DNA of 64,000 nucleotides from Bacteroidota bacterium (GTDB taxonomy: Bacteria; Bacteroidota; Bacteroidia; AKYH767-A; 2013-40CM-41-45), in contig JADJFC010000006.1 of the NCBI GenBank assembly GCA_016708785.1, positions 185,411-249,410 on the forward strand, in the 5' to 3' direction. The notes beneath the pieces were generated by a model. The model saw only the letters and a program-made list of their open reading frames with translations, had not been told where the DNA came from and did not search any database. Of this stretch, positions 14,843 through 61,860 are shown in pieces; position 1 is the first letter of the stretch, and each line of letters starts with the position of its first letter. The translations under genes were made by a program, and so were the position numbers.

Positions 14843-14843
14843 T

Positions 14844-32461: not shown

Positions 32462-32482
32462 GCAATGGACTATGGATTAATA

Positions 32483-33481: not shown

Positions 33482-33573
33482 TGGAAGAAGAATTAGAATA
33501 GTTGAAGTGTGATTAATCTAAATTAGTAAATAATAGATTTTAAAAATTCATTTTTGGAAAATAATTCTGAGGT

Positions 33574-33666: not shown

Positions 33667-33675
33667 GAATTATAC

Positions 33676-33716
33676 AAAAAAAGGCCCGCAGTGAAATTCA
33701 TTGCGGGCCTTTTGAA
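33676..33716 (-). terminator. Rho-independent terminator downstream of lepA (bidirectional form)
   Basis: AAAAAAAGGCCCGCAgtgaaattcatTGCGGGCCTTTTGAAAAAA. GC stem with A-run and T-run on both sides. Confidence 0.7.
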
Positions 33717-35563: not shown

Positions 35564-35656
35564 TCTGCGGTTTTTCTGCGTATTCTGCGCAATTCTGCGG
35601 GAAATAATTCTACATGTTTTTTCTCCCGCAGAATTGCGCAGAATACGCAGAAAAAC
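35564..35656. repeat. Inverted pair of family B repeats upstream of lepA
   Basis: TCTGCGGTTTTTCTGCGTATTCTGCGCAATTCTGCGGGAAA, a 16-nt spacer, then TTCTCCCGCAGAATTGCGCAGAATACGCAGAAAAAC. Confidence 0.85.
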
Positions 35657-35672
35657 AGAAGCCCCTTCGAGG

Positions 35673-37085: not shown

Positions 37086-37094
37086 TCTATTTAA

Positions 37095-37130
37095 GTGAGT
37101 GGTAATTGGTGAGTGGTGAGTGGTGAGTGG
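37095..37130. repeat. Family C repeat (GTGAGTGG tandem words)
   Basis: GTGAGTGGTAATTGGTGAGTGGTGAGTGGTGAGTGG between metF and ribE. Confidence 0.75.
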
Positions 37131-37171
37131 CAGGGGCTTTCTTTATTTCAGAGTAATTACTGCTAATTTAA

Positions 37172-43121: not shown

Positions 43122-43166
43122 TTGTCAGTTTGAAACGCTGCGCGTTTTTTAAACACGAAGTTCATT

Positions 43167-43232
43167 AAAATTTTAGCCACGAATACACGAATAAAAAAAT
43201 AATTTATTCGTGAATTCGTGGCTAAAATTTTA
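43167..43232. terminator. Bidirectional terminator hairpin between convergent pepA and pdxA
   Basis: AAAATTTTAGCCACGAATACACGAATAAA / 8 nt / TTTATTCGTGAATTCGTGGCTAAAATTTT. About 27-bp stem with one mismatch. A/T runs flank it on both sides. Confidence 0.7.
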
Positions 43233-43247
43233 GCGGACTCACGATTT

Positions 43248-44339: not shown

Positions 44340-44400
44340 ACATACCTTTTCGGGGTGACAAATTCAATGGAAATTACGCCCGAATGTGTTTGGAATTGTT

Positions 44401-44446
44401 ATTTCCCGCAGAATTGCGCGGAATACGCAGAATAGCCGCAGAAAAA
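44401..44446. repeat. Family B repeat, direct orientation
   Basis: ATTTCCCGCAGAATTGCGCGGAATACGCAGAATAGCCGCAGAAAAAC. It abuts the stop of the downstream esterase gene. Confidence 0.85.
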
Positions 44447-45700: not shown

Positions 45701-46050
45701 GGTGTGGAGAATTTGGATGAAGATATGTTTTTTCCGTTATATAACAATACATCAGAAAATTCGCAAAAAAAATCCGTGGTCCTTTAGTTTGTATCGGCTA
45801 TTTGATTTTAGAAGAATACAATTACAAGGACCTTTAAAATGGAATTAAAAAGTATTGTAATTTGTGAATAAGTTAACCACATCAACAGGGGAACTTCATC
45901 CGTGGAAGAGGTTTTGAAGCCTATAAGGAGATTGACCCCCCTGTTGCTGTGACTAAAGCAAACTCAAATAGAAATTGAGACATTAAAGTCTATTATCAAG
46001 GGCTTGAGTATACTTTAGTTGTGGTTAATGATACATCTAAAACAAATTTA

Positions 46051-47057
46051 CATGAAAAACATTACCAACACATTCTTGGGATTGATGTTTCAAAAAAACA
46101 TTGGATCTTTCCTTGGTCATCGCCGGGACAAACAAAACGTTGTCTATGAACAGTTTGAAAACAATGCAAAATCGATTCGTCGAATTGGTTTGTGGTTAAA
46201 AAAGTACAATATTGAATGGGATCGGGTATTGGTCTGTATGGAATTCACAGGAATTTATAATCGCCCAATGCTGCAATTTTGCACGCTTAAAAAAATTGCA
46301 GTTTGGATGATCATGCCAATTGAGATCATTCGTTCGATGGAATTCAAAGAGGGAAAAACGATAAAATAGATTCTAAAAAAATAGCTATGTATGCAATTCT
46401 GCATCATGACAAAATAAAAGTATGGCAGCCGGTGTCAAAGAATATAGTCTTGTTAAAGGATCTTCTCGCATTACGTCAGAGATTGATCAAGGTCAGCAAA
46501 ATATTATTGCAACCGATAAATGAATTGAAAGCTATAAAAGATAAAGTTGCAGCAAAGAAACCAAAGTACATTGTAAATCGAGCATTGAGCAGCTCAAGAA
46601 GGAGCTTCACAAAACAGAAGCAAGAATAAAAGATTATAACAGAGGATGAAGTATTGCAAAAAAATTACAACCTGTTGCTAACTATCGGAATTGGGGCTTA
46701 TACAGCCTTAGATTTAGTCTGCTACACAAATAACTCGAATACTACCAAGAGGCTAAACAATTGGCTTGCTACGCTGGAACCGCTCCATTTGAACACTCCT
46801 CAGGAACTAGTGTTCGAGGAAAAACAAGAGTAAGTAAAATGGCTAACCAAAGTCTAAAGACCAACTTAACTTTAGGGGCTGGTCTGTAATAAGAACAAAG
46901 GGGTTCTTGAGAAAATACTATGAAAGGAAACTTGACAAGGGAAGGCAAAAATGTTAGTAGTAAATGCTGTTCGGAATAAACTATTACATATTGCTAGCGC
47001 GGTAATTAGAAATCAAATGCCGTTCGATAGGAATTATTCTAGCCCATTGGCTAGTTA
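46051..47057 (+). mobile_element. Decayed IS110-family transposase gene (multiple frameshifts/stops), remnant insertion sequence
   Basis: Three-frame reading reconstructs MKNITNTFLGIDVSKKTLDLSLVIAGTNKT... / ...FENNAKSIRRIGLWLKKYNIEWDRVLVCMEFTGIYNRPMLQF... / ...IPGVGLYTALDLVCYTNNSNTTKRLNNWLATLEPLHLNTPQELVFEEKQE... (frame-equivalent of ...LACYAGTAPFEHSSGTSVRGKTRVSKMANQSLKTNLTLGAG...), and VVNAVRNKLLHIASAVIRNQMPF. This covers the DEDD N-terminal domain and C-terminal domain of IS110/IS1111-type transposases. ORF-track entries 46019-46369 and 46387-46629 are fragments of it. Confidence 0.75.
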
Positions 47058-47096
47058 ATTAAAAAAACGCTGGGGTATTGTTTTATAACATAGAAA

Positions 47097-47159
47097 TCTC
47101 CTTGTGAACTTGTGATCTACGTGTTTAAAAAACACAAAGTACACAAGTTCACAAGGAGA
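47097..47159. repeat. Family G hairpin (GTGAACTTGTG words) downstream of the IS110 remnant
   Basis: TCTCCTTGTGAACTTGTG / 27-nt loop with an inner GTGTTT-AAACAC stem / CACAAGTTCACAAGGAGA, followed by CCACGGAATATTGAG as in the 27524-27610 copy. Confidence 0.8.
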
Positions 47160-47217
47160 CCACGGAATATTGAGGGATGCAATTCGAATTACGAATTACG
47201 AATCTCTATTCACAGTA

Positions 47218-48774
47218 TTATTGCATCGAAACTCGTTTGCTAACGATTCCTTTATCAGTAGTAACGCGAACAATATAGATTCCATTGCTAAGATTTCCTC
47301 TCAGGAACGTTGATGATGATCCAGACAAATTATCTTTCTTCCAGATCGATCTTCCTGTGATATCAGAAAGTTCTACTGTTTTAATAGTCAGATTTGTTCC
47401 GTCTGCTGAAACAGTGAATTGAGAAGTTGAAGGGTTTGGATAAACCGCAACAATTTTATTCAATATTGATTCAGAGATTCCATCAGGAAGTCCTAAACAA
47501 TAAACGATACGTGGATTTACATAGTTTTGAATTGTATCGATATATGCTAATGCTTTCGCTTTAGACATATCAGGATTAGTTCCTAAACCGTTCATATAAG
47601 CTTGAGTTCCTGCAGAAGCTGAAAGACCTACTGCTTGAGCATAAACTGTCAAAGCAGTTGAATCATACCACTCCCAAGGACCGGCTTCGCCCGGTGCAAA
47701 TGGAGGTGTTGGACGAAGGAATGGGAATAGTCCATCTTCACCGCCATTATTATTATTCGCTGCCAATGTATATGGATCTGTGAAGCCAGCTAAATTGAAG
47801 CAAGCATTATTACCTAATAAATTTGATTTTGTGATCACAGTTTGGCTACCACTTACATCAACAACGAATTGAGGAGGTGTTGTTGGCACGTAAACCGGAC
47901 CATCTCCATAAGGAGCAAATGGATCGTTTGTAACATGGAATGCAACCATTGGAGCATCACCTGCTTCTAACCAAGAACTATCACCTAGTGCACCACCCAT
48001 GTTCAATACGAAACGAATGTTTGAGCTAAATCCAACGTGATTGTTTGGGTTATTAAATTGTGGAAGTCCACCGTAACCATCGAAATCACCTAATATAGCT
48101 TGATTCACATATGGCTGACCGATTTGGAAACCATAAGTTGCATTGTTAGTATTCGATAAGAATTTCGGAAGTTGAATTTCTGACGGCTTGTCTAATGTTG
48201 CATAAGCCATTGCAATGTATCCACCTGTACCTTGTCCTGCAAGTATGATATTATTCGTATCAACTGCATATGTATTTCCTGTATTCGAAACATCTTCGTA
48301 GAAAAAACGAACACAAACTTTTGCATCTTGAATTGCACGATACACGGCTTGTAATAAAGTTCCTGTACGTACATCCTGATCAGGATCTGTTGGAACCCAA
48401 CCTTGACGGTATGTTGCATTTGCTACTACATAACCGCGACGAGCAAATTGAGTACACATTTCTACAGCTGCAGAATCACTTTTTCCTCCTGTAGGATTTT
48501 GGTTAAACACAGCTGGGACAAAACTTCCTGTGTGAAGATAAACGATCAGCGGCCGAATTGGCTCAACATCACCAACTGGCTGATAGATATCCATTTTAAG
48601 ATCCTGTGCAGTTGGTGTTCCTGTAGGGAAAATGGTAATGTTGTTTCCGTAAGTTACGTTTGGTGTTACTGATACATCAGAAAACACTTCTGATAAATAA
48701 CGTTGGGCATTCATAGTTTGCGCAGTGAAAAGCGCAAATGCCAACATCGATAGTTTTAGTAGATTTTTTTTCAT
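47218..48774 (-). CDS. T9SS-secreted alpha/beta-hydrolase (esterase-like) paralog with type-A CTD
   Basis: 518 aa. Signal peptide ending NAQ. Core collinear with 44447-45700 (LHTGSF, RRGYVVANATYRQG, GQGTGG). C-terminus VYPNPSTSQFTVSA...GIYIVRVTTDKG CTD. Confidence 0.75.
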   Translation of the reverse strand: MKKNLLKLSMLAFALFTAQTMNAQRYLSEVFSDVSVTPNVTYGNNITIFPTGTPTAQDLKMDIYQPVGDVEPIRPLIVYLHTGSFVPAVFNQNPTGGKSDSAAVEMCTQFARRGYVVANATYRQGWVPTDPDQDVRTGTLLQAVYRAIQDAKVCVRFFYEDVSNTGNTYAVDTNNIILAGQGTGGYIAMAYATLDKPSEIQLPKFLSNTNNATYGFQIGQPYVNQAILGDFDGYGGLPQFNNPNNHVGFSSNIRFVLNMGGALGDSSWLEAGDAPMVAFHVTNDPFAPYGDGPVYVPTTPPQFVVDVSGSQTVITKSNLLGNNACFNLAGFTDPYTLAANNNNGGEDGLFPFLRPTPPFAPGEAGPWEWYDSTALTVYAQAVGLSASAGTQAYMNGLGTNPDMSKAKALAYIDTIQNYVNPRIVYCLGLPDGISESILNKIVAVYPNPSTSQFTVSADGTNLTIKTVELSDITGRSIWKKDNLSGSSSTFLRGNLSNGIYIVRVTTDKGIVSKRVSMQ

Positions 48775-48894: not shown

Positions 48895-51710
48895 CTAATT
48901 CAAAGTGACCAAAATTGAAGCATAAGCCAATCGGCCTACCAGCGGCCCACCATAAACTTCATAATGCATGTTATTCAACAAGTTGGATGCGCCTACTTTA
49001 AAGACAGACTTCAATTGCGGAACTTTTTTACTGATTTGCATGTCTACAACTTCGTAACTTTCTATCTCGCCGGTAAATTGCGGCGAGCCTTCAAAGAGAA
49101 ATCCCTGTACCCATTTGTAGTTGATGTTGTAACTCCAGTTTGAAATTTTGATCTTGTTGAAAAGCATTGCTTCAATATCTCTTCCACCAAATCCAAGATT
49201 GTATTTATTACGCGGTGTATTGTATGCAGGAATAATTGGATCATCGGAACCTTGTTTGTTGAGTTCATTCCATGAATAATTTCCATTGATGCTAAAATAT
49301 TTTCCAATGAAATAATTTAGTCCAATACTGAATCCTTGCGAACTTACTTTGTCTTGTGAATTGCTTGCAATTCTGAACACATCGTTCAACTCAAGGAAAT
49401 CACCACCAAATGGCGAAGTACTTGTAGTAACATCTGCTCCTACAATATAGCCGATAAAATCTGTATAGACACTATAGTAATAATTTGCATCGGCATAAAG
49501 ATTATCAGTCAATGAAGCACGATAACCAACTTCAATCGTCTTTACTTTTTCAGGCTTCACCGGACCAATATTGAAATAACTTAATTTATCCAGATCAGGA
49601 AACCCTGACAAATAATCTCGCAAAGATGGAATAGTTACAAGCGAATCGTAGCCCGTAATATTTCCAAGAAGTTTTGCTCGCCCAACATTGTAATATAAAT
49701 ATTGATCTGTTAAAGTTGGATTTCTGATCGCTGATGAAAACGAAAGTCGTACAACATTTTTCGGGTCAATCGTATAGACCAATGAAGCAGCCGGACTTAG
49801 CAGTAAATCGAAATTCTGATTTTTATCGGCACGAAGCGTAAGGTTGATCTTTAACTTATCCTCTAACACCTTTTTTTCCAGCCCGCCATAAAATCCAAAT
49901 TCATAACTCTCAATTTTGCGTCCTGAAGTATCACTGAAAATTGTACCATCACTTTGCGGAAGATACTTTCTGTAGTTTCCTCCAATTATTACATCTCCAA
50001 ACTTCGGAGTAAGTTTATACTCACCTTGAACGTGTACCAATCGCGACTTATCATAGAACCTTGATCCTCCTTCTGTAAATGATCTGCTGGATGTAATACA
50101 TTGAAGAGTGAATCGAATCGTTGTGTTCCAGGCTCGTAAAACGGAACTGCTTTTTGAGAAACACTGGTAAAATCATCTGCATATTCACGAGAATTATTAT
50201 GATAGAGCTGAAGTGAATCATAATAATTAGCCAGCAGAAATGGATTAATTGATGCAGTATATTCAGCAAATAACTGATCGTAATTCGGATCACTTGGCGA
50301 AGGTGCCTGAGGGTACCCTGGAAAATTGCTTTCCCTGACAAAATATCGATTCTGTGACAAAGACCAAAAACCAACATAGTTAGTACTCCATACATAGTCA
50401 GATTTTGATGCCTGTTGCAAAAGCAATGCAGTAAAATATGCATCATATGATTTACCTGCATCTTCATTCGTAGTATACGCTCTGATAAAGAACTTATTTT
50501 CTTTTCTATATTCAATCCGATTTTGAAAAAACAAAATGTCTTTCAAACTAAATCTGTTGTCGCCTTGATAAACAGTAGTACCTGCCCCAAAAGCAGAATT
50601 GAAAATTATTTCATTCTTAGATTTTGTTTTGTAATGAAGCGCCAAAGATGATTTAAAATTTTCTGTATTGTAATCGACCAAGTCATTTTCAGCATATCCC
50701 GTACGATAATAAGTCATAACACCCGGTCGGATCCTTGGAACTGAATTATAATTACTTGTTGCATAGTATTCATCGCCATAAACATTTACAGCATCATAAC
50801 CACCCGGATTTCCCGGACCATCAGGTGAGTCCGGAGTAGCGCTCATATTATTTGCCTGCCAGTCATTTGCTTTCATGTAGAAGAGATTCAATTTGTATGC
50901 GAATCGTTCATTACCGCTTTTATCTTTAAAAACTTGCGACCAGCGCACAGCAGTTTCGACAAGATTTCTTTCGCCGACTTTAAATGAAACTTCCAGTCCC
51001 GGTTTTACAAACGGACTTCTGGTCGTCATTGCAATTACACCATTGAATGCATTCGGACCATAATACGCAGAACTCGCGCCTGCGATCAGATCGACTTTCA
51101 ATACATCAAGTTCACTTGACCCCAAGAAATTTCCCAATGAAAAATTTAATCCCGGCGATTGATTATCGACTCCATCGATAAGCTGCAATGAACGCACCGG
51201 TGAAGTGCTATTGAATCCGCGGGTATTGACAATTGTAAATCCGAGTGATGCACTCGTAAGATCGACACCTTTCAATGTTCCTAATGCTTCGTAAAAAGAA
51301 TTCTGTGCGCTTTGTTTGATGGCAATCATGTCGATACTCTCAACAGTAAGCGGCGCTTCTTTTTGTTTTTCGGAAACGCGACTACCTGTAATGGTCACAT
51401 CTTTCAATTCAACTTTCTTGGAAGACAATTTGAATGTGACTGGCTTTGAAAAATCGGTAACGACAATTTCGGAAGAACTGTAACCAACCGATGCAACTAA
51501 AATGGTAACCGGGGCTTGTTGCCCGCTTACCGACAATTCAAATTTACCGTCAATATCTGTGCTAGTCCCAATAGAAGTTCCTTTGATAGACACAGATGCA
51601 CCGATGATACTTTCGCCCGTAGAATTATCTTTGATTACGCCGCTGATCTTTTGGGCATTTGCTGCAATTGAAACAAATAACAAACCAACCACTAGTAGAA
51701 TATTCCGCAT
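48895..51710 (-). CDS. TonB-dependent outer-membrane receptor (CarboxypepD_reg N-domain + plug + beta-barrel) with apparent frameshift at about 49989-50046
   Basis: ORF 49989-51710 carries the signal peptide, the carboxypeptidase-regulatory-like domain (ISGVIKD...GASVSIKGTSIGTSTDIDGKFEL) and the plug (TonB-box region, NTRGFNS). ORF 48895-50040 is barrel strands in another frame. The two overlap by 52 bp and both are open there. Confidence 0.7.
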
Positions 51711-51814
51711 CTTTTCTCTTTGTCTTTGGTATCAAACCTAGGTTATTAGTGTGAAATAATCAAGGTTTAATGCGGAAATGTTTTAACATTTTTTGCGTGG
51801 GAAAGGGTAAAAAA

Positions 51815-51874
51815 AATGGTTTAAAAAGTTTAATGGGTTAAATGCGATTGTCAAATTAAACTCTTTAAACCATT
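51815..51874. repeat. Family H element: 25-bp word GTTTAAAAAGTTTAATGGGTT within an 11-bp-stem hairpin
   Basis: AATGGTTTAAAAAGTTTAATGGGTTAAATG ... CTCTTTAAACCATT. The same 25-mer recurs at 55856-55880. Confidence 0.75.
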
Positions 51875-52006
51875 TGAACCAACAAATCCACCTCAAAAGT
51901 TTTAAAGGAATTTACTTTTGCATTATTTAAAATTATTTTCAATTTAACACTTCCAATTAGAATAATAGTTTACTTTGGTATCGTTGAATCTTTTAATTGA
52001 ATTTTT

Positions 52007-52996
52007 ATGATGCTTTACAATTATTCTTCTGCACTCTTTTTAACTGTCAGATATGCATATATTTTACTTATTCTCACCGTTAATCCAATTTCTGCATTTT
52101 CACAAAATTATGTTCCGAATCCGAGTTTTGAGGAAATCGATACTTGTCCAAGTGATTTAAATTATTTCGAGAAAGCTGTTGGCTGGAGAAGTATTTTAAA
52201 TACTCCAGACTTATTTAACAATTGTTCCCAGGGGAGAGTTTCAATTCCAACAAATCAATTTGGTTATCAAGAATTAAAGCCGAATAGTGGTTTTAGCTAT
52301 GCAGGTTTAGCAAGTGGTATTGGCTCAAGTGGTCTATATAACGAAATAATAGGAATTAAACTAAATGAAACATTAATTTCAGGACAAAGGTATTTTTTAT
52401 CGTTTGACTTTTCATCTGGTTTCAATGTTAATGGTCAAGTAAATTGTCAATGTTTTGTTAATAAGCTGGGTGTAAAATTTCTAACTCATTTCGAAGATAC
52501 AAATAATATTTCCCAAACAATAATTAATAATACTGCAACTTTATTTTCAGATTCTGTATTAAGCGACACATCAAACTGGTTGACATTTTCAGGAAGCTTT
52601 ATAGCTGACTCTTCATATTCTTATTTATTGATAGGTAATTTTTTCACACAAGACTCCATGACGTTTAATTGCATTGATGTATCTTCTTCCATTTCATATA
52701 CATATTTAGATAATATTTGTCTATCACAGAATTTAAATGATTGCAATGGTATAATTGCTGACACTAAATTGTGCTCGTTTAACTTGTTTCCAAATCCAAG
52801 TTCAGGTAAATTTTCAATACACAGTGATGAGCAATATTTCAATAATAGTATCGCTAAAGTTTATAATTCAATTGGAGAACTAATTTTAAAGCAAAATATG
52901 AAAGGAGGTGAAAATATTTTCGATTTTAGTAATTTGAACAGTGGACTTTATTTAATTGTATTGAATGAATGTATTCTTAAAATAACTTTATACTAA
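52007..52996 (+). CDS. T9SS-secreted hypothetical protein (AT-rich) with type-A CTD
   Basis: 329 aa. Signal-like N-terminus. C-terminus LFPNPSSGKFSIHS...GLYLIVLNE CTD. Confidence 0.65.
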   Translation: MMLYNYSSALFLTVRYAYILLILTVNPISAFSQNYVPNPSFEEIDTCPSDLNYFEKAVGWRSILNTPDLFNNCSQGRVSIPTNQFGYQELKPNSGFSYAGLASGIGSSGLYNEIIGIKLNETLISGQRYFLSFDFSSGFNVNGQVNCQCFVNKLGVKFLTHFEDTNNISQTIINNTATLFSDSVLSDTSNWLTFSGSFIADSSYSYLLIGNFFTQDSMTFNCIDVSSSISYTYLDNICLSQNLNDCNGIIADTKLCSFNLFPNPSSGKFSIHSDEQYFNNSIAKVYNSIGELILKQNMKGGENIFDFSNLNSGLYLIVLNECILKITLY

Positions 52997-53006
52997 ATAA
53001 AAAACT

Positions 53007-55844
53007 ATGAAAACAAATTCTTATGTCCAAAAATTAATTTTATGTGTCTTAGTCAGTTTAATAAATTATTCTTGTTTTGCACAATGGAAGATTGGCATAA
53101 ATGGGTTGGGTGATATGTGGGGAGAAACGGATCCTGCTAACAAAATTGACGCAATCGGTATTGGCGATTATTTAGGGAATGCTACTCAACCTGCCGCAGC
53201 CCTTGACATTACTATTCCCTATCTATTCAATCAAGGTTCAATGCTTGTGAACCAAGGCGAAGCGATTCGTTCTTCTGCTGCAACAGATTTTAACCACACA
53301 TGGAAAATGTATACATTTCCTGAAACCGAAAAATTTCGGGTAGAAAATCCAAGTAATAGCCCTGACATCAATCTAAGTGTAATGCAAGAAAAGGGCATAC
53401 TGCGCTTACATACAACTGATGGGCTCTATGGTTTAGAAGAGCGAATGCGATTTACTTATGGCTTGGGTGGGCCTTCGGGAAATATCGGCACAACGAAAGC
53501 AGCCATAAGTTACGGCTCCGGTTTTCTTCCAATAGACCAACCTCAAGCTATTTTGAATCTTGGACATCGTTCTAATTTAGGATCTTTAGGTGCACGTACT
53601 TGGATGGACGTCGGTACTTTTATGGTAGATGCAGAAGATCAAATGTATGTTGGGATAAAAGATGATCGCGGCACTGGTGGTGCTGATCGTGGTACTGCTG
53701 TAATTAATTGGGGCGATAACCCTACATCCGGATATGGACCGGATATGCTTAAATTTATTTTCACAAGCGGTTTAAATGCAAGTTCTTCTTCTGATGCTGA
53801 AAAAGTGGATGGTTTAGAAATAGCGCGAATGACTGCATATGGAAATATGGGAATTGGAAATATCTGGAACTTAACCAATATTTTGCCAAAACGAAGGCTA
53901 GACATTTGGGACAATGCGGGTAGCCCAACCTCCAACCCCGCACATGTGAACGGACCGCAATTGCGACTAACAGAAACAGGAAGGACAACCCTCACTGGAG
54001 GGAGATGGACAGAGCTTGAAACAACAGGATTGGGTGATTTTTATATTCATCCATTCGATGGTACTACGAACCGAAATGTTGGAATAAATACGAATATACC
54101 AGGTAATACTCTTGAAATAAAAAGTAATGCCGGTACAGCAATTCCGGGATCAAGTGGTTTGCGTTTTACTTATCTAAATACAACTTCAATTCCTCTTGTC
54201 ACAAATCCATTTGGCAGCACAAGTCCTGCTGTATTGAGTGTAGATAATCAAGGCAATGTTGTTTTAGTTAAAGATGAAACAGTTTCTCCAACGAGCGGAC
54301 TAAATACATGCTCATCAGGAATTCCGGACAACTTTGTTTTGAAAATGGACGTTAGCACAACAAACACAGTTTGTAAAAGTATTGTTTATGATGATGGAAC
54401 AAACGTTGGTATAGATGTTCCGAGTTTATTGCCCCTTCAAAAACTAGACGTCAATGGTAATGTTAATGTCAGAGGTACTGCAATAACAAGCGGACTCTAC
54501 TTCAATAATGCCAAATTTGTTTCTACCGGTGGTTCATCAAGTTCAAATGTTTATTTAGGCACTTCTGCAGGACCGACTACTGCTGCACTAACAGGATATA
54601 GTAATATTTGTATTGGTGGAAATACAGGAACAAGTATGAATTCTTCCGAAACAGATAATATTATGATTGGACAAAATGCCGGAACAAATTTGAGTGGAGC
54701 CGGTGTTGGAGATAACACTTTGATTGGGCGAAGTGCAGGTTTAAATGTTACAAATGGTCTGGAGAATACATTCATTGGCTATAACGCAGGAACGAATTAT
54801 TCTTCAAATCATCATAATACAGCTATCGGAAGCTTCGCAGCTTCATCAGCTACTGGAGTTACAGGCGACAATAATACGTTTATTGGTTATCAGGCTTCAA
54901 CTACTAACGGGACTGCTTTTAGCAATAGCACAGCAATTGGAGTTTATTCATCTGTCGATGCAAGTGATTGTTTAGTTCTTGGGAATGTTAATGGTGTAAC
55001 TCCTACCAATGTCGGTACAAGAGTTTTAATTGGATACACTAATCCTTCAACTGCAGTTAATACCGATTTTCGATTGTATGTAAATTCTGGTGCCAATGGA
55101 CATGCAGGATTTTTTAATGGCGATACTTACAATGCGGGAACTTATTATCCTTCCGATAGAATTTTAAAAATGAATATTCAACCCATTCAAAATTCATCAG
55201 ATATAATAAATCGACTTGAACCTAAGACATATAATTACGACCAAATAAATCATCCCGGAATTAAATTGCCTTCCGGAGATCAATATGGATTAATTGCAGA
55301 AGATTTAGACATGATTCTGCCTGGACTTACAAAGCAATTTACTGCCCCTGCTGTTAAGGATGCTTTAGGAAATATCATAACACAAGAAGAAACGTTTAAA
55401 GGAGTAAATTATACACCCTTAATAAGTTTATTGATTCAAGGCTTCAAGGATCAGCAACAACATATAGATTCGTTGATGATGCGATTAAATAATTTAGAAG
55501 TTGCTATGAACGCGTGCTGCAGCAGCTCTTCAAGCCAACGGACATCTGTTAACAGCATTGACATTGAATTAACTTCGGAAAATTCAATCATACTGAATCA
55601 GAATGACCCGAATCCTTTTGCTGAACAAACAAGAATTTCGTTCAATGTTCCAACTGATGTAATGGAAGCAAAAATTATTTTCTTCGATAACTCGGGACAT
55701 ATTTTGCAAACCGTAAAAATAAACGAACGCGGCGCAGGACAAATAAATGTGTATGGTGAAAAGTTGAGTAGCGGCATTTATAGTTACACACTAATCGCTG
55801 ACGGGAAAGTCATCGATACGAAAAAAATGCTTGTGACAAAGTAA
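53007..55844 (+). CDS. T9SS-secreted tail-fibre-like protein: N/G/T-rich IGxxAG beta-helical repeats + peptidase S74 intramolecular chaperone domain + type-A CTD
   Basis: 945 aa. Signal peptide (CFAQ). About 15 repeats of N[TI]xIG.xAG (NIMIGQNAGT, NTLIGRSAGL, NTFIGYNAGT, NTAIGSFAAS, NTFIGYQAST, STAIGVYSSV). Then SDRILKMNIQPI...YGLIAEDLDMILP...VNYTPLISLLIQGFKDQQQHIDSL, matching the endosialidase/tail-spike C-terminal chaperone domain. Final 90 aa DPNPFAEQTRISFNV...GIYSYTLIADGKVI is a T9SS CTD. Confidence 0.7.
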   Translation: MKTNSYVQKLILCVLVSLINYSCFAQWKIGINGLGDMWGETDPANKIDAIGIGDYLGNATQPAAALDITIPYLFNQGSMLVNQGEAIRSSAATDFNHTWKMYTFPETEKFRVENPSNSPDINLSVMQEKGILRLHTTDGLYGLEERMRFTYGLGGPSGNIGTTKAAISYGSGFLPIDQPQAILNLGHRSNLGSLGARTWMDVGTFMVDAEDQMYVGIKDDRGTGGADRGTAVINWGDNPTSGYGPDMLKFIFTSGLNASSSSDAEKVDGLEIARMTAYGNMGIGNIWNLTNILPKRRLDIWDNAGSPTSNPAHVNGPQLRLTETGRTTLTGGRWTELETTGLGDFYIHPFDGTTNRNVGINTNIPGNTLEIKSNAGTAIPGSSGLRFTYLNTTSIPLVTNPFGSTSPAVLSVDNQGNVVLVKDETVSPTSGLNTCSSGIPDNFVLKMDVSTTNTVCKSIVYDDGTNVGIDVPSLLPLQKLDVNGNVNVRGTAITSGLYFNNAKFVSTGGSSSSNVYLGTSAGPTTAALTGYSNICIGGNTGTSMNSSETDNIMIGQNAGTNLSGAGVGDNTLIGRSAGLNVTNGLENTFIGYNAGTNYSSNHHNTAIGSFAASSATGVTGDNNTFIGYQASTTNGTAFSNSTAIGVYSSVDASDCLVLGNVNGVTPTNVGTRVLIGYTNPSTAVNTDFRLYVNSGANGHAGFFNGDTYNAGTYYPSDRILKMNIQPIQNSSDIINRLEPKTYNYDQINHPGIKLPSGDQYGLIAEDLDMILPGLTKQFTAPAVKDALGNIITQEETFKGVNYTPLISLLIQGFKDQQQHIDSLMMRLNNLEVAMNACCSSSSSQRTSVNSIDIELTSENSIILNQNDPNPFAEQTRISFNVPTDVMEAKIIFFDNSGHILQTVKINERGAGQINVYGEKLSSGIYSYTLIADGKVIDTKKMLVTK

Positions 55845-55855
55845 TGCATTCGATC

Positions 55856-55918
55856 GTTTAAAAAGTTTAATGGGTTTAAGGTGGGCGCAGCACTTTAAAC
55901 CCATTAAACACTTTAAAC
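55856..55918. repeat. Family H element, second copy, forming a 17-bp-stem hairpin between convergent genes
   Basis: GTTTAAAAAGTTTAATGGGTTTAAG gtgggcgcagca CTTTAAACCCATTAAAC ACTTTAAACC. Confidence 0.75.
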
Positions 55919-55932
55919 CATACTTCAACTTG

Positions 55933-58900
55933 TTATTTACTTATCACAAGCGTCCCAGTCTTCCTCGACTTAGCATTCGTATACGTATAAAAATAAACCC
56001 CCGGAACCAGCTCCGTAGTTTCAACCCGGAACAAATGCTCACCACTGTCTAAGTTTCCATCGACAACTGTTTGAACTAGTTTGCCGGTAACATCAAAGAT
56101 CTTAACTGACACGGATTGACTTTCATTCGTTACAAATGCAAAGACTGCATAATCGCCGGCAGGATTCGGATAAACGTATAATGGCGAATTGTTTTTTATT
56201 TCTGAAGTTGATGTTCCAGGCTCGAGAACGATCACTGAATCACATTTCACACATGAATTTGAATCGGTGATGCAAATCATATATGTTCCTGCTGTTAATC
56301 CGGTCACAATTGATGTTGTGAAATTTCCCGGCGTCCATGAATAAGAATAGGGCGGGAATCCTCCTCTGACCGTTGCATCTGCTGTTCCATCAGCACAGGA
56401 AATACAACTTGCATCGGTATGCGAAGTGATCAAACTCAATGAATCATCTTGTGTGAATGTAAATTGTCTGTTCTCAATACAACCTAAGGCATCAGAGATC
56501 GTCACATCTATAGTACCTGAACAACCATTCGAAATTGTTTCTGTGGTTTCGCCGTTACTCCATAAATATGAATAAGGTGCCGAACCTCCACTTACACTCA
56601 ACTCTGCACTTCCTGTACACTCTGCAAAACAAGTATGACCGGAAGACGTTGACGTGACTACAACAGGATCAGGCGACTGCACTAATGCTGATGCAATTGC
56701 TGTGCATCCATGATCGTCTGTTAGAAGTACGCTATATGTTCCGGGTGATAAATTCGTTGCTGAATCTGTTGTTTGTCCTGAAGGTGTCCACAAATAAGTA
56801 TATGGCATTGTTCCGCCACCTACACTTGCAACAATTCTTCCATCGGTATTTCCAAAGCAACTGACATCATAAGGAATCATCAATGCTCCTAATGGCGATG
56901 GCTCCGGAAGGATCACGCCTATGCTATCCTGACATCCCAGATTATCAATTACTACAACAGAATAAATTCCACCAAGAATTTGTGTTGCTGAATTTGTATT
57001 TGAAACATCAGGCAACCAGGTATAACTATATGGTCCTGTTCCTCCTGTTGTGGAAAGAACAATTGATCCATCGTCTGTTGAATTACATGATGTCTCTACC
57101 AATGATGTTACATTTAAATCAGGCAATGATGATGTAGTGACTGTAACGCCTAAATTTCGTGAACATAAATTAGCATCTGATACTACAATCGTATAATTTC
57201 CAGGCGACAATCCGGTTGCTATTGCACTTGATGAGACATTCGGTGTCCATGAAAAATTATATGGAGCATTACCACCTGATGGCGAAAGATTTACTTCTCC
57301 ATTTGCTAGTCCACACGTTGAATTTACAACGGAAGAGATCACCGCCAATCTTGTTGGCTGCAATACAGTTGCCGATTGTGTCGTTGAACAATTGCGACTG
57401 TCTGTTACTCTCACAGAATAATTTCCTGCAAGCAGATTTGTTGCAATAGAATCTGTTCCGCCGGAAGGTGTCCACAAGTATGTATATGGCCTTGTTCCTC
57501 CTGAAGCATTTGCTTCCAAGCGGCCATTATTTCCGCCGTAACAACTAACACTGTCAGCTGTTGAAACAATTGAAAGTTGATCGGGCTGAAGAATTTCTAC
57601 TTGCTGGATCGTAGTACATCCATTGTCATCATTTATTTCTACAGAATAAATTCCGGCTTGTAAATTTGTTGCGACAGAATCAGATCCGCCAACAGGCGAC
57701 CATGAAAATGTCATCGGCGCTTTTGCTCCGGTGACACTCACTGTTGCTGCTCCATTCGAACCGCCAAAGCAACTTACACTGACATTATTTGAAATCGCTA
57801 CAGTCATTCCACTTGCACTATTTACAATTACGGATTGCTCAAGAGTACATCCACGTTGATCTGTTATCGTCACAGAATAATTACCTGCTACAATATTATT
57901 TATCGCCGCTGTTGTTTGTCCGTTAGGTTGCCACAAATAAGTATACGTTCCCGTTCCACCTGAAGCATTAACCTGAGCGCTTCCTGTAGCCGATGCACAA
58001 ATGGAAGTTGTTGAAGATGTTGTTGCTGAAAGTGCAGCAGGATTCGTCAATGTCACTCCTGAATTCACTGAACAATTAAAACTATCTCTAACGGTTACAT
58101 TATATGTTCCTGGTGCAAGTCCTGAGATGGTACTTGATGTTTGTCCACCGACATTCCATAAATAAGTAAGCGTACCTGTTCCTCCTGATGAAATCACTGA
58201 AGCACTTCCATCACTACCATTGTTGCAATTCACAGGAGTGGAAGAAACAGTTGCATTGATAACAGGAGCTTGCGAAATATTAACCGACTCTGTACGTGAG
58301 CAATTATTTACGTCGGTGACAGTGACAGAATAAGAACCGGCAGAAATATTATTGATCGTTGATCCGGTTTGATTTCCCGGCAACCAGTTGTATTGATACG
58401 AACCTATTCCACCACTTACAGTTGCTTGTGCTGAACCTGTTGATCCACCATAACATCTCACATCGGTTTCCGTAACTGAAACAATGATCGGTGTAGGTTG
58501 TGAAATGACAATGTTCATGCTCGCTGGACAACCTGTTACATCTGTTGCTGTCACGGTATAATTTCCGGCTAATAAATTTGTTGCTGTTGAATTTGATCCT
58601 CCTGATGGCGACCAACTATAAGTGTATGGTCCACTGCCTCCTGAAACTGTAACTGATGCTGATCCTCCGGCTTGATTGAAGCAGGTTGCATTCGTAACAT
58701 TGTTCAAGGCAATGATCGGTGATGATGGATTTACAATATTTACAGTTGTCGTCTTCGAACAACCACCTGCATCAGTGACGATCACAGAATAACTTCCGGA
58801 GCACAAATTTGTCGCAGTAGCTGTTGTTTGTCCATCAGACCATGCATACGTAAATGGCGAAGTACCGCCACTCACATTTGCAGTTGCCTGTCCGGCGCAA

Positions 58901-60966
58901 CCCGATGCATCGCATGGCGCATTCACGGCACTTGCATTTACCGTTAGTAATGCAGGTTGAGTAATCGTTGCAGTTGCTGTTCGCTTACATCCTATTGCAT
59001 CGGTAAATTCTACGGTTTGTATTCCGGCACACATGCCACTCAGAGTATCGTTATCACTGCCATTATCCCATTGATAGGTTTTCTGATATGGCGAAGTTCC
59101 GACAGCGACTAATTGTCCATCGCATGCATTCAGACAAGAAACATTTTGCTGAACAATATTCAATGAACAATTACATCTTCCCGGCATATTTGAATCGAGC
59201 CACGATAATCGTCTGCTCATCCAATTTTTCAGATTCTGAATTTCTCCTGCATAAGTTGATGGTTGAGGCGAAGGATTCGGCCACACATATGTTCCAAGAA
59301 TTGGCCATTGATTAAAATTCCAGTCTTTCGATTCATTCAACAAATTTGCAATGGAATCTATTACGCCATTTATATGCGACAGACTTAAAACGTTGTTTCT
59401 GTAATCTGTCCAGCGGCATTTCATCTGATTGGTATAATTCGTATCCTGTTGCAATTTTTGCCACCAGAAAGGAACCTGCCAGCTATCGCCTGTACATGAG
59501 AATAAATATGCCCAGCCGGTTGTATCTGTTGCATCACAATAATTCGCATTTCCATAGGCAATATCGTAATCCCAAACCGGACCGGCTTTCAAAGTCTTTT
59601 CTTTGTCTTTGTACAAATACGAACTGATCCGATATCCATCGACATTCTTGCTCAACTCATTCGAGAAAAAATAATCGATCCATGAACCGTTGCCGATAAA
59701 TTTCTGATAGCCTACAATTGAATCACGAAAATTATTTCCTGCCAAGGCGTTTTCAAAACTATCGACATAAGCCTTAATATATGCCTTTTGCGAAGGAACT
59801 ATACTGTCAGTTGAAGGATAGTCATATTGAATGAAAATATCCTGACCATTTGAATGATTGATTGGCGCATAAGCAGAAGTCCAGCCATCGCCACCACTCC
59901 CTGTTGTCTTATCGATCTTAACTATGTACCCTCCTGTTATATCCGGTGCAGTGATTTCCGTTCTTTCCAGCTTACTTATATCGACACGATTTTTATCGCG
60001 TTTCAGACTTTCCATAAAAACATATACTCCCCAGTATTGTCCATTGAGAACAACATCAACATATTTTGTTCGAACAGCGTAATGACCCATTTCATTTGCG
60101 AGTTGGTATGAAACAACATTTCTGCAAAATGATTTATCGGTATAATTTGCACTAAGGATCCAGTCGTGTTCTGAAGGCATTCCTAACAATGAAGTATCGA
60201 CATTCACTAAACCACTATTATCACGCGTTTCAAAACCAAAAGACTTTTTCGGAAACATTTGTGAACTGGAGCCTCTTACTTCTATTGCAATTTTACCATC
60301 GTAATTATTTGGAACATCAGACACATGATTTCTCAAACCAATTCCATTATCGATGATCTTCATATCGACAATGATCTTTGGATCATCAGGAATTGTTTGT
60401 CCATTTGTATTGATGATCACAATTGGCAATGAGGATTCCGTAAAAATAAATGTCAATGCAGGTGAATTACTGAATTTAATACTCCAACCCGTTAAAGATC
60501 CGGTGACACCGTTGTTAGAATCATCGATGACACGCAATTGCCATGTTCCATTTCCATTCTGGTTATTATTCACTCTCCAAAGATCTCCTTCGGGTTTAAA
60601 CGTTCCTGTGAAAGGCGCGCTTCCGGAAGTGATTGACGTACTTGCGCTATGCTTGAAAACAGTATTCGTGAAATTGTTTCCTGTACCACCGTTGTCAGTA
60701 GTCAGTTCGATCATTGTTCCATCAGGAGCAGCAAGAAAACAATCGATGTCGCGATCTGATCCATGTGAAATATTTATCGTTACGGATTCCAATCCATAAT
60801 TGAAATCGATTGGATTGGCAAGACCTGTAACAGGAATATTAAATCGTGATGTATCGGTCAATGTAATAATTGATCCACCGGAGCCTGTAAAAACCTGTGC
60901 ATTCAAACTATCCTTAGAAAAAAAGAATAGCAGAAATCCACATAAAAAAATCTTGAGTGTTCTCAT
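55933..60966 (-). CDS. Giant T9SS cargo: proprotein-convertase P-domain + CotH kinase-like domain + about 13 SprB repeats + type-A CTD
   Basis: 1677 aa. N-terminus INISHGSDRDIDCFLAAPDGTMIEL...GTWQLRVIDDSNNGVTGSLTGWSIKF is a P-domain. YTDKSFCRNVVSYQLANEMGHYAVRTKYVDVVLNGQYWGVYVFMESLKRD is a CotH block. Then Cys-rich about 70-80-aa repeats with VSGG.GPYTYSW..G.....AT.L.AGNYTVT.TD..GC (SprB repeat). The end YVYPNPAGDYAVFAF...GVYFYTYT is a CTD. Confidence 0.8.
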   Translation of the reverse strand: MRTLKIFLCGFLLFFFSKDSLNAQVFTGSGGSIITLTDTSRFNIPVTGLANPIDFNYGLESVTINISHGSDRDIDCFLAAPDGTMIELTTDNGGTGNNFTNTVFKHSASTSITSGSAPFTGTFKPEGDLWRVNNNQNGNGTWQLRVIDDSNNGVTGSLTGWSIKFSNSPALTFIFTESSLPIVIINTNGQTIPDDPKIIVDMKIIDNGIGLRNHVSDVPNNYDGKIAIEVRGSSSQMFPKKSFGFETRDNSGLVNVDTSLLGMPSEHDWILSANYTDKSFCRNVVSYQLANEMGHYAVRTKYVDVVLNGQYWGVYVFMESLKRDKNRVDISKLERTEITAPDITGGYIVKIDKTTGSGGDGWTSAYAPINHSNGQDIFIQYDYPSTDSIVPSQKAYIKAYVDSFENALAGNNFRDSIVGYQKFIGNGSWIDYFFSNELSKNVDGYRISSYLYKDKEKTLKAGPVWDYDIAYGNANYCDATDTTGWAYLFSCTGDSWQVPFWWQKLQQDTNYTNQMKCRWTDYRNNVLSLSHINGVIDSIANLLNESKDWNFNQWPILGTYVWPNPSPQPSTYAGEIQNLKNWMSRRLSWLDSNMPGRCNCSLNIVQQNVSCLNACDGQLVAVGTSPYQKTYQWDNGSDNDTLSGMCAGIQTVEFTDAIGCKRTATATITQPALLTVNASAVNAPCDASGCAGQATANVSGGTSPFTYAWSDGQTTATATNLCSGSYSVIVTDAGGCSKTTTVNIVNPSSPIIALNNVTNATCFNQAGGSASVTVSGGSGPYTYSWSPSGGSNSTATNLLAGNYTVTATDVTGCPASMNIVISQPTPIIVSVTETDVRCYGGSTGSAQATVSGGIGSYQYNWLPGNQTGSTINNISAGSYSVTVTDVNNCSRTESVNISQAPVINATVSSTPVNCNNGSDGSASVISSGGTGTLTYLWNVGGQTSSTISGLAPGTYNVTVRDSFNCSVNSGVTLTNPAALSATTSSTTSICASATGSAQVNASGGTGTYTYLWQPNGQTTAAINNIVAGNYSVTITDQRGCTLEQSVIVNSASGMTVAISNNVSVSCFGGSNGAATVSVTGAKAPMTFSWSPVGGSDSVATNLQAGIYSVEINDDNGCTTIQQVEILQPDQLSIVSTADSVSCYGGNNGRLEANASGGTRPYTYLWTPSGGTDSIATNLLAGNYSVRVTDSRNCSTTQSATVLQPTRLAVISSVVNSTCGLANGEVNLSPSGGNAPYNFSWTPNVSSSAIATGLSPGNYTIVVSDANLCSRNLGVTVTTSSLPDLNVTSLVETSCNSTDDGSIVLSTTGGTGPYSYTWLPDVSNTNSATQILGGIYSVVVIDNLGCQDSIGVILPEPSPLGALMIPYDVSCFGNTDGRIVASVGGGTMPYTYLWTPSGQTTDSATNLSPGTYSVLLTDDHGCTAIASALVQSPDPVVVTSTSSGHTCFAECTGSAELSVSGGSAPYSYLWSNGETTETISNGCSGTIDVTISDALGCIENRQFTFTQDDSLSLITSHTDASCISCADGTADATVRGGFPPYSYSWTPGNFTTSIVTGLTAGTYMICITDSNSCVKCDSVIVLEPGTSTSEIKNNSPLYVYPNPAGDYAVFAFVTNESQSVSVKIFDVTGKLVQTVVDGNLDSGEHLFRVETTELVPGVYFYTYTNAKSRKTGTLVISK

Positions 60967-61117
60967 GAGAAAATAAGTCTTAATGAATGATTGCGAAACA
61001 GAAAATTCCGGTTCACATCATTGTATTTTACTCTTTAGAGACTTGAAAAGTTGTTCTAAAAATAGCTAAAATAGCTCTAAATGTTACAATTATTTATTTA
61101 TTTCACTGGAACTTTTC

Positions 61118-61510
61118 CTACACCTCAAAAGCAAGAGCAGCAATAACTATCGTAGTACCTGCGAAAAGAGTCCCCTGTGTTTTTAGTCCGGAATAAATCA
61201 AAAAAGAAGAAAACGCCATTCCACTCATAATAATAACAAAAGCAAATATCACTCTTAACAAGTCAAGAGAGTGAATTCTAGAGTTGCTATTTTCAAAAAG
61301 ACTCATTCTTCTTTCATTAAAATTTATCCTTGCAGCTTGCTCTTGTTCTGCACGAGCTTTCAGCCAATTTACACATTCAGGATCTACTTCTTTGTACTTT
61401 GCTAACTCTGCAGCTTCAGGAAGAAAGCTGTCATCTGTTGTTTCTATATGTTCAATTGCAGATGTATTTCCCCTCTGAGCCGCCTTAATTTGACGAGAAC
61501 TCTTTCCCAT
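61118..61510 (-). CDS. Small membrane protein, DUF2335-like (two C-terminal TMS)
   Basis: 130 aa. Hydrophilic N-terminal half, then LLRVIFAFVIIMSGMAFSSFLIYSGL and LFAGTTIVIAALAFEV helices. Confidence 0.5.
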   Translation of the reverse strand: MGKSSRQIKAAQRGNTSAIEHIETTDDSFLPEAAELAKYKEVDPECVNWLKARAEQEQAARINFNERRMSLFENSNSRIHSLDLLRVIFAFVIIMSGMAFSSFLIYSGLKTQGTLFAGTTIVIAALAFEV

Positions 61511-61860
61511 TTCAAAAAAAATTATTTATGACAATAATCGTGATGGGCCTTTTTTATGTCATTGCTTACATTCTTCCAATCTGCTCTAAGATTAGCTTTA
61601 TCAGCAGACCGTTCAATATATTTTGTGTCCGACATATCAACATCAAACAAGTCATTTAAACTTCTCTGATCGGTATGAGAAACAGAAAAACTCCATTCAT
61701 TCCTGAAAAGAATTCCACTAAAAATTTTAAATACTTGTTCATGATTGTTGAACGATTTAAGTGTCCATTTGTTTACACTGCAAAGATATTAAGTAAAACA
61801 GGAAGACTCCAACCAATAAATGATGGATATTATATTATTTAATTAAAAGTTTATTTAAAC

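Follow-up and report, generated by a model that had tools for sequence, protein, structure and literature searches.

Probable insertion of a two-gene type IX secretion cassette at a dispersed hairpin repeat in uncultured Bacteroidota

Surface and secreted accessory genes vary greatly among environmental Bacteroidota, and the route by which they move is mostly unknown where no integrase or transposase lies nearby. How do such genes come to stand where they are found, and by what means could they leave? Here, we consider this question for a 64-kb stretch of DNA (the window) from an uncultured Bacteroidota species that has been assembled repeatedly from activated sludge and wastewater (conspecific assemblies include GCA_016714715.1, GCA_016707305.1, GCA_016706265.1 and GCA_963851495.1). 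Two adjacent plus-strand genes, gene 1 (52007-52996) and gene 2 (53007-55844), whose products carry features of type IX secretion system (T9SS) substrates, stand between a TonB-dependent receptor gene and a gene for a CotH/SprB-repeat/T9SS protein, both on the minus strand. The locus provides a case, resolved to the nucleotide, of a two-gene T9SS cassette lodged in a hairpin that resembles repetitive extragenic palindromic (REP) sequences, with reciprocal empty and occupied sites in two sister species. Judged by sequence comparison, the cassette is best regarded as a small mobile unit without a recombinase gene of its own.

What sets the two genes apart from their surroundings is a direct repeat on either side of them, which the initial annotation had given as 25 bp at 51818-51844 and 55856-55880. 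The repeat itself is real: an exact 21-nt match, GTTTAAAAAGTTTAATGGGTT, occurs on the plus strand at 51819-51839 (copy 1, within which an exchange or duplication would have occurred) and at 55856-55876 (copy 2), and it grows to 24 of 25 nt once a 1-nt indel is allowed; the first of the two intervals had been placed 1-2 nt off. The chance expectation for this 21-mer is 0.00 matches (100 dinucleotide-preserving shuffles). Copy 1 lies 168 bp upstream of gene 1 and copy 2 lies 12 bp past the gene 2 stop codon, so that the copies do stand just outside the two genes, as had been stated. A third copy, with 2 mismatches, is found on the minus strand at 55898-55918, where it forms the opposite arm of one of the hairpins described next.

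The further proposal that each repeat copy sits inside its own hairpin of a common family, family H, was borne out by the folding analysis. Hairpin B, on the TonB side, spans 51814-51875, with arms at 51814-51834 and 51855-51875 that are 95% complementary, and folds at -18.8/-19.7 kcal/mol (z -3.8/-4.7 against shuffled controls). Hairpin A, on the CotH side, spans 55853-55921, with arms at 55853-55883 and 55891-55921 that are 87% complementary, and folds at -31.8/-30.3 kcal/mol (z -7.2/-5.7). In general, an H copy is a near-perfect palindrome of 65-75 nt built of 9-nt GTTTAAnnn units, 3-4 units per arm, with the consensus AAAAAwwG-GTTTAAAATGTTTAAGGGGTTTAAGGTGT-loop-ACACTTTAAACCCCTTAAACAnTTTAAACCAT and the ends ATGGTTTAAA ... 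TTTAAACCAT. A search against Rfam gave only sub-threshold look-alikes of miRNA precursors.

Are the two genes native to this place, or were they added to it? The initial annotation had suggested looking in relatives for an empty site, with one copy of the repeat separating the TonB receptor and the CotH gene. Syntenic loci of related species, 10-22 kb each, were collected by a search with the intact TonB receptor, taking one genome per species. In six related species (L011, L080, L013, L018, L014 and L015), the CotH gene lies directly next to the TonB receptor gene, across a gap of 130-330 bp with no cassette, and in two of these, L011 and L014, the gap contains exactly one H hairpin. The closest of the six is L011 (contig JANOBV010000053 of the metagenome-assembled genome (MAG) GCA_031411835.1), with 90% amino acid identity in the TonB receptor and about 81-84% identity at the DNA level; the TonB receptor of L080 is 87% identical. 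The L011 spacer reads, in order, CotH stop codon, one H hairpin, a T-run, and the conserved upstream or promoter region of the TonB receptor gene. The spacers of L080, L013, L018 and L015 consist of unrelated sequence and have no H. Relative to the empty arrangement, the window has a net insertion of about 4,037 bp, comprising 51876-55855 plus one extra hairpin copy. The inserted DNA starts with TTGAACCAAC and ends with ATTCGATC, without terminal inverted repeats and without a short (2-10 bp) target duplication; the sole duplication is that of a hairpin arm or of the whole hairpin. On this comparison, the two-gene block is an insertion, most plainly one at a pre-existing H hairpin between the CotH 3' end and the TonB-receptor promoter, the direction of the event being taken by parsimony over seven species without a formal tree.

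The two junctions can be compared with the empty site base by base. The single hairpin of L011 (9827-9891) aligns by blastn both to window 55920-55856 and to window 51881-51817, and the resident features are divided between A and B. Hairpin A has in common with L011 the loop GCGCAGCAC, the distal arm and the CotH-side flank CCATAyTTCAACTT. Hairpin B has in common with it the TonB-side flank ACCCTTT...AAAAwTG and the proximal (shared) arm; its loop AAATGCGATTGTCAA and distal arm ATTAAACTCTTTAAACCATTT, in the region 51840-51875, are non-resident and shorter. Among 19 H copies, the arm variant GTTTAATGGG is present only in A, B and L011. The closest H copy to A is that of L011 (0.86 identity), and B is the most divergent H copy of all, with A as its nearest relative (0.69 identity). 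By these alignments hairpin A is the ortholog of the L011 empty-site hairpin, and A and B look like reciprocal hybrids of two H copies, one of them the resident, with the join lying in the shared arm.

A further resident feature is an A-run on the plus strand at 51809-51818, which on the minus strand is a U-run following the hairpin. The run is kept beside the hairpin in L011, L014, L080 and both copies of L091 (see below) and is absent beside hairpin A. It is likely the U-tract of an ancestral CotH terminator, now parted from CotH by the cassette. A scan for consensus terminators and promoters made no call at the hairpins, because their stems are AT-rich.

Does the same cassette occur anywhere else? 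Leaving identical copies aside, gene 1 has its best homolog (P0056, 90% identity across the aligned portion) on L091, contig JANOBV010000029 of GCA_031411835.1, the very MAG whose CotH-TonB site is empty in L011. There the cassette lies between a CN-hydrolase gene and a convergent 132-aa gene, and it too is bracketed by two H hairpins in direct orientation, at 6505-6590 and 10905-10995. The two share 88% identity over 73 nt, including an exact tract of 28 nt, and fold at -39.4 and -34.8 kcal/mol. In the window species, this CN-hydrolase site is empty (L193), with the two stop codons 14 bp apart, and it is likewise empty in L098 and L095; L193 comes from the same MAG, GCA_016714715.1, as the cassette-bearing contig L002. 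The identity levels of the contigs paired within these MAGs are mutually consistent. The two sister species thus appear, as far as their assembled sequences tell, to have reciprocal occupied and empty sites.

At the DNA level, the two cassette copies are homologous over 51931-54394 (86% identity), beginning 76 bp upstream of gene 1, and over 55564-55919 (81%). At codons for identical residues, third-position identity is 0.86 in gene 1, about 0.70 at both ends of gene 2, and 0.61-0.70 in ten flanking orthologs. Since the value for gene 1 exceeds that of the flanking genes, at least part of the cassette has an ancestry more recent than the species split, and this argues for mobility of gene 1, or of part of the cassette, after speciation.

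Several observations concern the state of the homologous copies. The sister cassette (L091 6873-10886) is degenerating: an in-frame TAG interrupts gene 1 just past the signal peptide, and gene 2 is broken into parts of 660 and 278 aa. The same degenerate state is seen in an independent Logan contig (L092). The central to C-terminal part of gene 2 (54394-55564, against L091 9260-10606), comprising the repeat-rich head and the chaperone region, cannot be aligned as DNA, whereas both ends are 85-87% identical, which suggests diversifying replacement of a putative binding region. In a third species (P0057; L190 and L191), with a gene 1 homolog of 78% identity, gene 1 is immediately preceded by a truncated gene 2-like fragment (L191 1-310, L190 1-145) that matches approximately aa 140-215 of gene 2. 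This arrangement points to cassette copies in tandem or rearranged, on contigs that do not extend into the flanks.

The weight of the bracketing depends on how common H is. Within the genus, H occupies at least 9 independent sites, mostly between convergent genes, and non-orthologous copies are 80-90% identical. A pattern scan of metagenomes returned 90 stretches, mostly chance single-arm matches in unrelated organisms; an nhmmer profile recognized about 12 as true H, at no fewer than 7 further independent sites and mostly from wastewater metagenomes. Almost all of these are single copies between convergent genes, and their contigs also carry the window's other hairpin families. None of the metagenome H loci is at the CN-hydrolase site, and none contains or adjoins a homolog of the cassette. 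Beyond the cassette flanks, no other H copy was found in the window or in the rest of L091. Because H is scarce elsewhere and solitary at its other sites, double bracketing at two loci is not background. Hairpins of another family in the window flank native genes (see below), and therefore bracketing alone is no proof of mobility; the empty sites are the evidence.

How might a cassette that has no enzyme of its own be placed between two hybrid hairpins? The most likely explanation is a Campbell-type (single-crossover) integration of a circular cassette through its own H into the resident H, which we put forward with middling confidence. The cassette would at first have stood between H copies at an earlier location, where recombination would free a circle bearing one H. 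A single crossover between the H of the circle and the resident H, falling in the 21-nt arm over which A and B now agree exactly, would then leave two hybrid hairpins: A, composed of the shared arm with the resident loop, distal arm and CotH flank, and B, which joins the resident TonB flank, U-run and shared arm to the loop and distal arm of the cassette. Run backwards, the exchange would remove the cassette and restore a single H. The predicted circle junction reads ...TAATGCATTCGATC-GTTTAAAAAGTTTAATGGGTT-AAATGCGATTGTCAAATTAAAC..., and the predicted restored empty site reads ...GGGTAAAAAAAATG-GTTTAAAAAGTTTAATGGGTTTAAGGTGGGCGCAGCAC.... The insertion, its junctions, the alternative locus in the sister species, the dispersal of H and the domains of the cargo are directly visible in the sequences, whereas the circular intermediate, the crossover and the nature of the enzyme, be it RecA or a dedicated protein, are inferred. 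Campbell-type integration accounts for A and B being hybrids, for the single H where the site is empty, for the lack of an element-encoded enzyme and for the repeated association of the cassette with H.

Several points weigh against this explanation. Hybrid direct repeats together with a single repeat at the empty site are found at the window locus; at the sister locus the ancestral single repeat was not observed, the empty CN-hydrolase sites of L193, L098 and L095 having no H hairpin, so that a resident H must be postulated there. The spacers between hairpin and homologous core are unrelated in the two species (55 versus 205 bp upstream, 11 versus about 27 nt downstream), and therefore one copy is not a simple translocation of the other. 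The upstream spacer of the window, 51876-51930 on the plus strand, is cassette-specific, with an unrelated 205 bp in its place in the sister copy, and the spacers on both sides, whether of the window or of L091, matched none of the fetched loci by blastn. At 21 nt (window) and 28 nt (L091), the tracts of identity are borderline, at or below the threshold of about 30 bp for RecA-dependent recombination in Escherichia coli (cited in PMC2884548). Look-ups with gene 1 and with the neighbouring 518-aa esterase yielded no empty allele among 20 conspecific contigs (L001-L010 and L194-L203), a near-clonal set, at least 99.93% identical over 4.2 kb, which has little power in this respect. The excision that the initial annotation had entertained thus shows no sign of being ongoing in these contigs, all of which carry the cassette with near-identical flanks. 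No circle junction was seen in the data examined. Finally, all sequences are MAGs or metagenome contigs, and the assignment of two contigs to one genome rests on binning.

One property of the junctions fits another explanation just as well. Both shared arms carry the site-specific AATGGG, as would be expected from duplication of the resident hairpin, barring heteroduplex repair or gene conversion. Perhaps the resident hairpin, as a cruciform or at a stalled fork, was cut at both bases or underwent a template switch, foreign DNA was joined there, and repair copied the entire 57-65-nt hairpin to both sides as a very long target-site duplication, B later losing its centre. The L011 hairpin does align full length to both A and B, B agrees with A at 39 of the 40 positions that make up its first 21 and last 19 nt, among them those of the site-specific AAT/ATT variant, the two flanking hairpins of L091 have an extra fourth unit in common, the right-hand one being the best match for the left-hand one (L091L), and the cassette ends have no conserved sequence. 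However, the centre of B (AAATGCGATTGTCAA versus TAAGGTGGGCGCAGCACTTTAAACCC) would need a complex replacement between ends that are near-perfect, and it is difficult to see how duplication of a target would bring the same cassette to H hairpins twice. Moreover, the right-hand hairpin of L091 is nearer to an unrelated H (0.87 to L165) than to its partner (0.84), and we know of no enzyme that makes such a duplication in bacteria. We regard this course of events as possible but unlikely. The shortness of the identity tracts for RecA speaks for recognition of H by a dedicated, structure- or sequence-specific recombinase encoded elsewhere, which would catalyse both integration and excision of the cassette, with tyrosine recombinases or HUH/RAYT-type enzymes as candidates and an integron-like logic of dispersed single sites. 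H is a conserved, structured palindrome that is near-identical at non-orthologous sites across species, the same cassette used it at two loci, and hairpin families turn over fast at orthologous sites, implying a mobilizing activity. Nevertheless, the longest identity lies in opposite arms at the two loci (the arm by the gene 2 stop codon in the window, the distal arm in L091), so that no fixed crossover point is visible; H lacks both the core sites of attC (GTTRRRY/RYYYAAC) and the GTAG/CGTC head of REP sequences; most H copies are solo, without a cassette; and the 36 window open reading frames (ORFs) scanned include no such enzyme apart from an unrelated IS110-family copy. A dedicated recombinase therefore seems distinctly unlikely.

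The remaining explanations dispense with insertion at a resident hairpin altogether. If the cassette were ancestral at the CotH-TonB site and had been lost from the relatives by recombination or slippage between H copies, the hairpins of L011 and L014 would be deletion scars. A solo H is exactly what such a deletion leaves, and variable segments commonly arise by deletion between the direct repeats on their flanks (PMC2884548). This history, however, requires independent and precise losses in at least six lineages, several of which (L080, L013, L018 and L015) have no H there, as well as a further, independent gain by the sister species at its CN-hydrolase site, and the elevated synonymous-site identity of gene 1 over the flanking genes argues for movement after speciation. 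We consider it highly unlikely. Could the association instead be a coincidence, the cassette having arrived by an unrelated route and the H hairpins having been seeded on its flanks later? Hairpins with TTCTGCG units do flank lepA and neighbouring housekeeping genes. But the insertion point coincides to the nucleotide with an orthologous resident hairpin, whose parts are split between A and B, and H is otherwise absent from the window and the rest of L091; coincidence is scarcely credible. Campbell-type integration, with the difficulties listed above, is therefore the explanation we retain for what had initially been proposed as a laterally inserted cassette at a family-H site, a proposal supported by the empty sites, the hybrid junctions and the second locus in the sister MAG.

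The composition of the cassette had also been offered as a sign of lateral origin, both genes being described as noticeably more AT-rich than their flanks. This holds for gene 1, with a GC content of 0.291 and a GC3 of 0.203 (in GC, -2.7 SD from the mean of 0.386 +/- 0.035 for the window's 45 long ORFs), but not for gene 2, whose GC content of 0.385 equals the window gene mean; the flanks stand at 0.392 (the N-terminal ORF of the TonB receptor) and 0.410 (CotH). The comparison of codon usage that had been suggested alongside windowed GC ranks gene 1 at 13 and gene 2 at 37 of 45 in synonymous codon usage, neither being an outlier. In the sister species, gene 1 is equally AT-rich (0.298), and low GC is therefore a property of the gene rather than a signal of recent foreign origin. 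We thus rejected composition as proof of such an origin: low GC is confined to gene 1, codon usage is normal and the sister copy is alike.

What does the cassette carry? Gene 1 encodes a protein of 329 aa with a signal peptide, a CBM-like beta-sandwich and a T9SS type-A C-terminal sorting domain, the last recognized at aa 260-320 by Pfam Por_Secre_tail (40.5 bits, cut-off 27) and also by TIGR04183. Its AlphaFold model has a mean pLDDT of 87, and Foldseek matches it to CBM4, CBM16 and gingipain (cleaved-)adhesin domains with TM scores, normalized to the target, of 0.55-0.63, and to the C-terminal domain (CTD) of a T9SS substrate with a TM score of 0.82. The predicted structure thus resembles a lectin-like or CBM-like beta-sandwich protein. 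Gene 2 encodes a protein of 945 aa that is like phage tail fibres, with PHROG tail-fibre family matches over aa 531-831, a Peptidase_S74 intramolecular chaperone at aa 716-773 and a weak T9SS CTD at aa 868-942, which scores under the cut-off (20.1 bits against 23); homologs of gene 2 carry PF18962. Homologous pairs of gene 1 and gene 2 occur in many Bacteroidota in varied contexts. The plus-strand region 51931-52006, from the start of the homology with the sister cassette to gene 1, is conserved and is also kept in L191 and L093; it contains a TTTG-type motif resembling the Bacteroidetes -7 element and is probably the cassette's own promoter and 5' untranslated region. Both products, that of gene 2 as a trimeric fibre of the tail-fibre type, would be expressed from this region and exported by the T9SS.

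The cassette consists of these two ORFs only, with no match to a recombinase, transposase, integrase, Rfam family or PADLOC defence model. Among the 36 window ORFs scanned, there is neither a Phage_integrase nor a Y1_Tnp match (the latter being the mark of RAYT, the Y1 transposase), and the only recombinase is the unrelated IS110 copy. On the left of the cassette, the TonB-dependent receptor gene (48895-51710, minus strand; Pfam CarbopepD_reg_2, Plug and TonB_dep_Rec_b-barrel) is split in the window into two overlapping ORFs (49989-51710 and 48895-50040) and is intact, at 938 aa, in the 20 conspecific contigs. On the right, the CotH/SprB-repeat/T9SS protein gene (55933-60966, minus strand; identified by Pfam) encodes 1677 aa, and its orthologs adjoin the TonB gene in relatives.

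How does this arrangement compare with known systems? Its logic comes nearest to the gain and loss of small variable segments through repeats (PMC2884548) and to REP sequences as targets of insertion (PMC1525189). Touzain et al. 2010 (PMC2884548) described repeat-flanked variable segments in bacterial genomes, and like those segments the cassette has direct repeats on both sides and one repeat where the site is empty, encodes no enzyme, and has a gain and loss attributable to recombination between repeats. It differs in that its repeat is neither a gene fragment nor a chance repeat but belongs to a dispersed family of structured hairpins, and in that the same cassette recurs in a sister species at another hairpin. 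REP sequences are known hot spots for the insertion of mobile DNA (PMC3116915, PMC1525189, PMC3733652), and H is like REP, REPIN and BIME elements in being short, intergenic, palindromic, dispersed, usually between convergent genes, kept at non-orthologous sites and subject to turnover between species. REP and REPIN sequences, however, have a conserved GTAG or CGTC tetranucleotide at one end (PMC3733652), whereas H is 65-75 nt long, is built of tandem 9-nt units and has no such head; furthermore, the lineage here is Bacteroidota, not Proteobacteria, and the insert is a transposase-less gene cassette, not an insertion sequence (IS). We came upon no published account of families of periodic-unit hairpins in Bacteroidota; closest to them are the tandem TAACTGA heptamers of Beggiatoaceae, Cyanobacteria and a few Bacteroidetes (PMC4679880). 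These are also intergenic arrays of 7-9-nt units with a patchy phylogeny and with filamentous or gliding Bacteroidetes among their hosts, but they are direct arrays upstream of start codons without hairpins, whereas the units here form inverted sets that make long hairpins at gene ends. Nor did we find any description in the literature of hairpin-bracketed cassettes in Bacteroidota.

Among mobile units without a recombinase, the integron cassettes offer a parallel: they can be circularized, encode no recombinase and integrate through an imperfect palindromic site, whose copies then bracket the cassette. The present cassette is likewise a recombinase-less module with palindromic site copies on both sides. 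Compared with attC, H differs in several ways: it ends GTTTAAA ... TTTAAAC, position 4 of R' is T and not a purine, GTT/AAC is outermost and not next to the spacer, and there are neither two-box arms nor extrahelical bases, the right-hand hairpin of L091 being a perfect 26-bp stem with no bulges. The scanned window has no IntI and no array, the cassette comprises two genes with an upstream region of their own, and the sites are dispersed singly. The pdif sites of Acinetobacter plasmids are 28-bp XerC/XerD sites, and integron mobilization units (IMUs) have terminal inverted repeats and short target duplications. Like pdif modules and such units flanked by miniature inverted-repeat transposable elements (MITEs), the cassette is a recombinase-less module that has a short repeated site on both sides and occurs in varied contexts, but neither 28-bp XerC/XerD sites nor terminal inverted repeats with short target duplications are found at it. 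Unlike an integrase-borne island, the cassette has two ORFs of which neither is a recombinase, and the 64-kb window contains no tRNA. An IS200/IS605-type element with cargo would be consistent with the lack of a hairpin at the empty sister locus (L193 and L098) and inconsistent with the window locus, where the empty site keeps one hairpin whose parts are shared between A and B.

If hairpin repeats of this kind generally served to dock cassettes, hairpin families would be substrates of gene shuffling and not only terminators or junk. One can go further and suppose that the periodic-unit hairpin families of the genus are the recombination sites of an undescribed trans-acting cassette-exchange system, with H as the site of this T9SS cassette, an idea that we hold with only slight confidence. 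Such a system would be analogous in function to integrons and pdif modules, with dispersed single sites, and would explain why hairpins turn over rapidly as well as why the cassette has changed its place.

The periodic-unit hairpins in the intergenic regions of the window fall into about seven families, of which H is one. There are approximately 15 long intergenic hairpins with arms of tandem 7-9-nt units, often locally clustered by family. Hairpins with GGTCAAAGG units lie at 2977-3046, 11616-11683 and 13745-13806; those with TTCTGCG units at 31654-31707, 32473-32526, 33551-33681, 35565-35661 and 44392-44445; those with GTGAGTGG units at 4451-4479, 5361-5400, 5519-5550, 22425-22456 and 37084-37132; and those with TTGTGAAC units at 27524-27610 and 47097-47159. 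A single hairpin has CACGAAT units (43159-43239) and another has TCGTTTA units (14843-14916). The hairpins adjoin housekeeping genes, lepA lying between two of the TTCTGCG family, and some stand beside an ordinary GC-rich terminator. At the orthologous site 3' of pdxA, three sister species have three different families (window 43122-43247, L011 17345-17630, L080 17128-17300): the window has CACGAAT units, L011 has a CTGCG hairpin of about 190 nt that folds at -100 kcal/mol, and L080 has one of H type; L014 has none. This pattern implies, for the orthologous sites compared, that the hairpins are either rapidly replaced or mobile in their own right, with a turnover like that of REP and MITE elements.

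Other insertions and deletions were noted near the cassette. In a more distant relative (L016), a 3.8-kb insert (6195-9992) between CotH and TonB contains three unrelated plus-strand genes, which encode 401 aa (with a C-terminus that is T9SS-like by eye), 242 aa and 355 aa (by eye, cytochrome-c peroxidase-like); we rejected it as a product of the same mechanism, the genes being unrelated and flanking repeats and hairpins being absent. By this comparison the CotH-TonB intergenic site appears to have taken insertions more than once. In the window itself, a 768-bp segment at 61089-61857, between CotH and a biotin-lipoyl-domain gene, has ORFs of 140 and 73 aa without Pfam matches and is absent in L011 and L080. 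It was rejected as a hairpin-bracketed insert, with no hairpins or repeats at its junctions.

The IS110-family element (window 45785-47218; L001 3678-5211; L003 4980-5209) shows presence/absence polymorphism within the species, being intact in L001, L194, L196 and L197, fragmented in the window, L002 and L004, and absent in L003 and in the sister L011. It is inserted a few tens of base pairs from a hairpin of the TTGTGAAC family, and the hairpin is not duplicated. The window's copy of the element has 12 indels, gene 2 of the window differs from all other assemblies by 2 unique nucleotide substitutions, and an exact look-up of gene 2 returned nothing on record. Together with the split TonB gene, these 12 indels and 2 substitutions suggest assembly indel errors in the window rather than a real pseudogene.

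Finally, periodic units are also seen beside a distant relative of the cassette. In L192, a distant pair of gene 1 and truncated gene 2 (41% identity) lies beside rpmA, and 3' of this pair, at 4262-4480, stand long unit arrays (GTAAAAAGTAATAA... and TTCTCAATCTTCCA...) with no hairpin; unit-repeat intergenic DNA is therefore not restricted to the window's genus.

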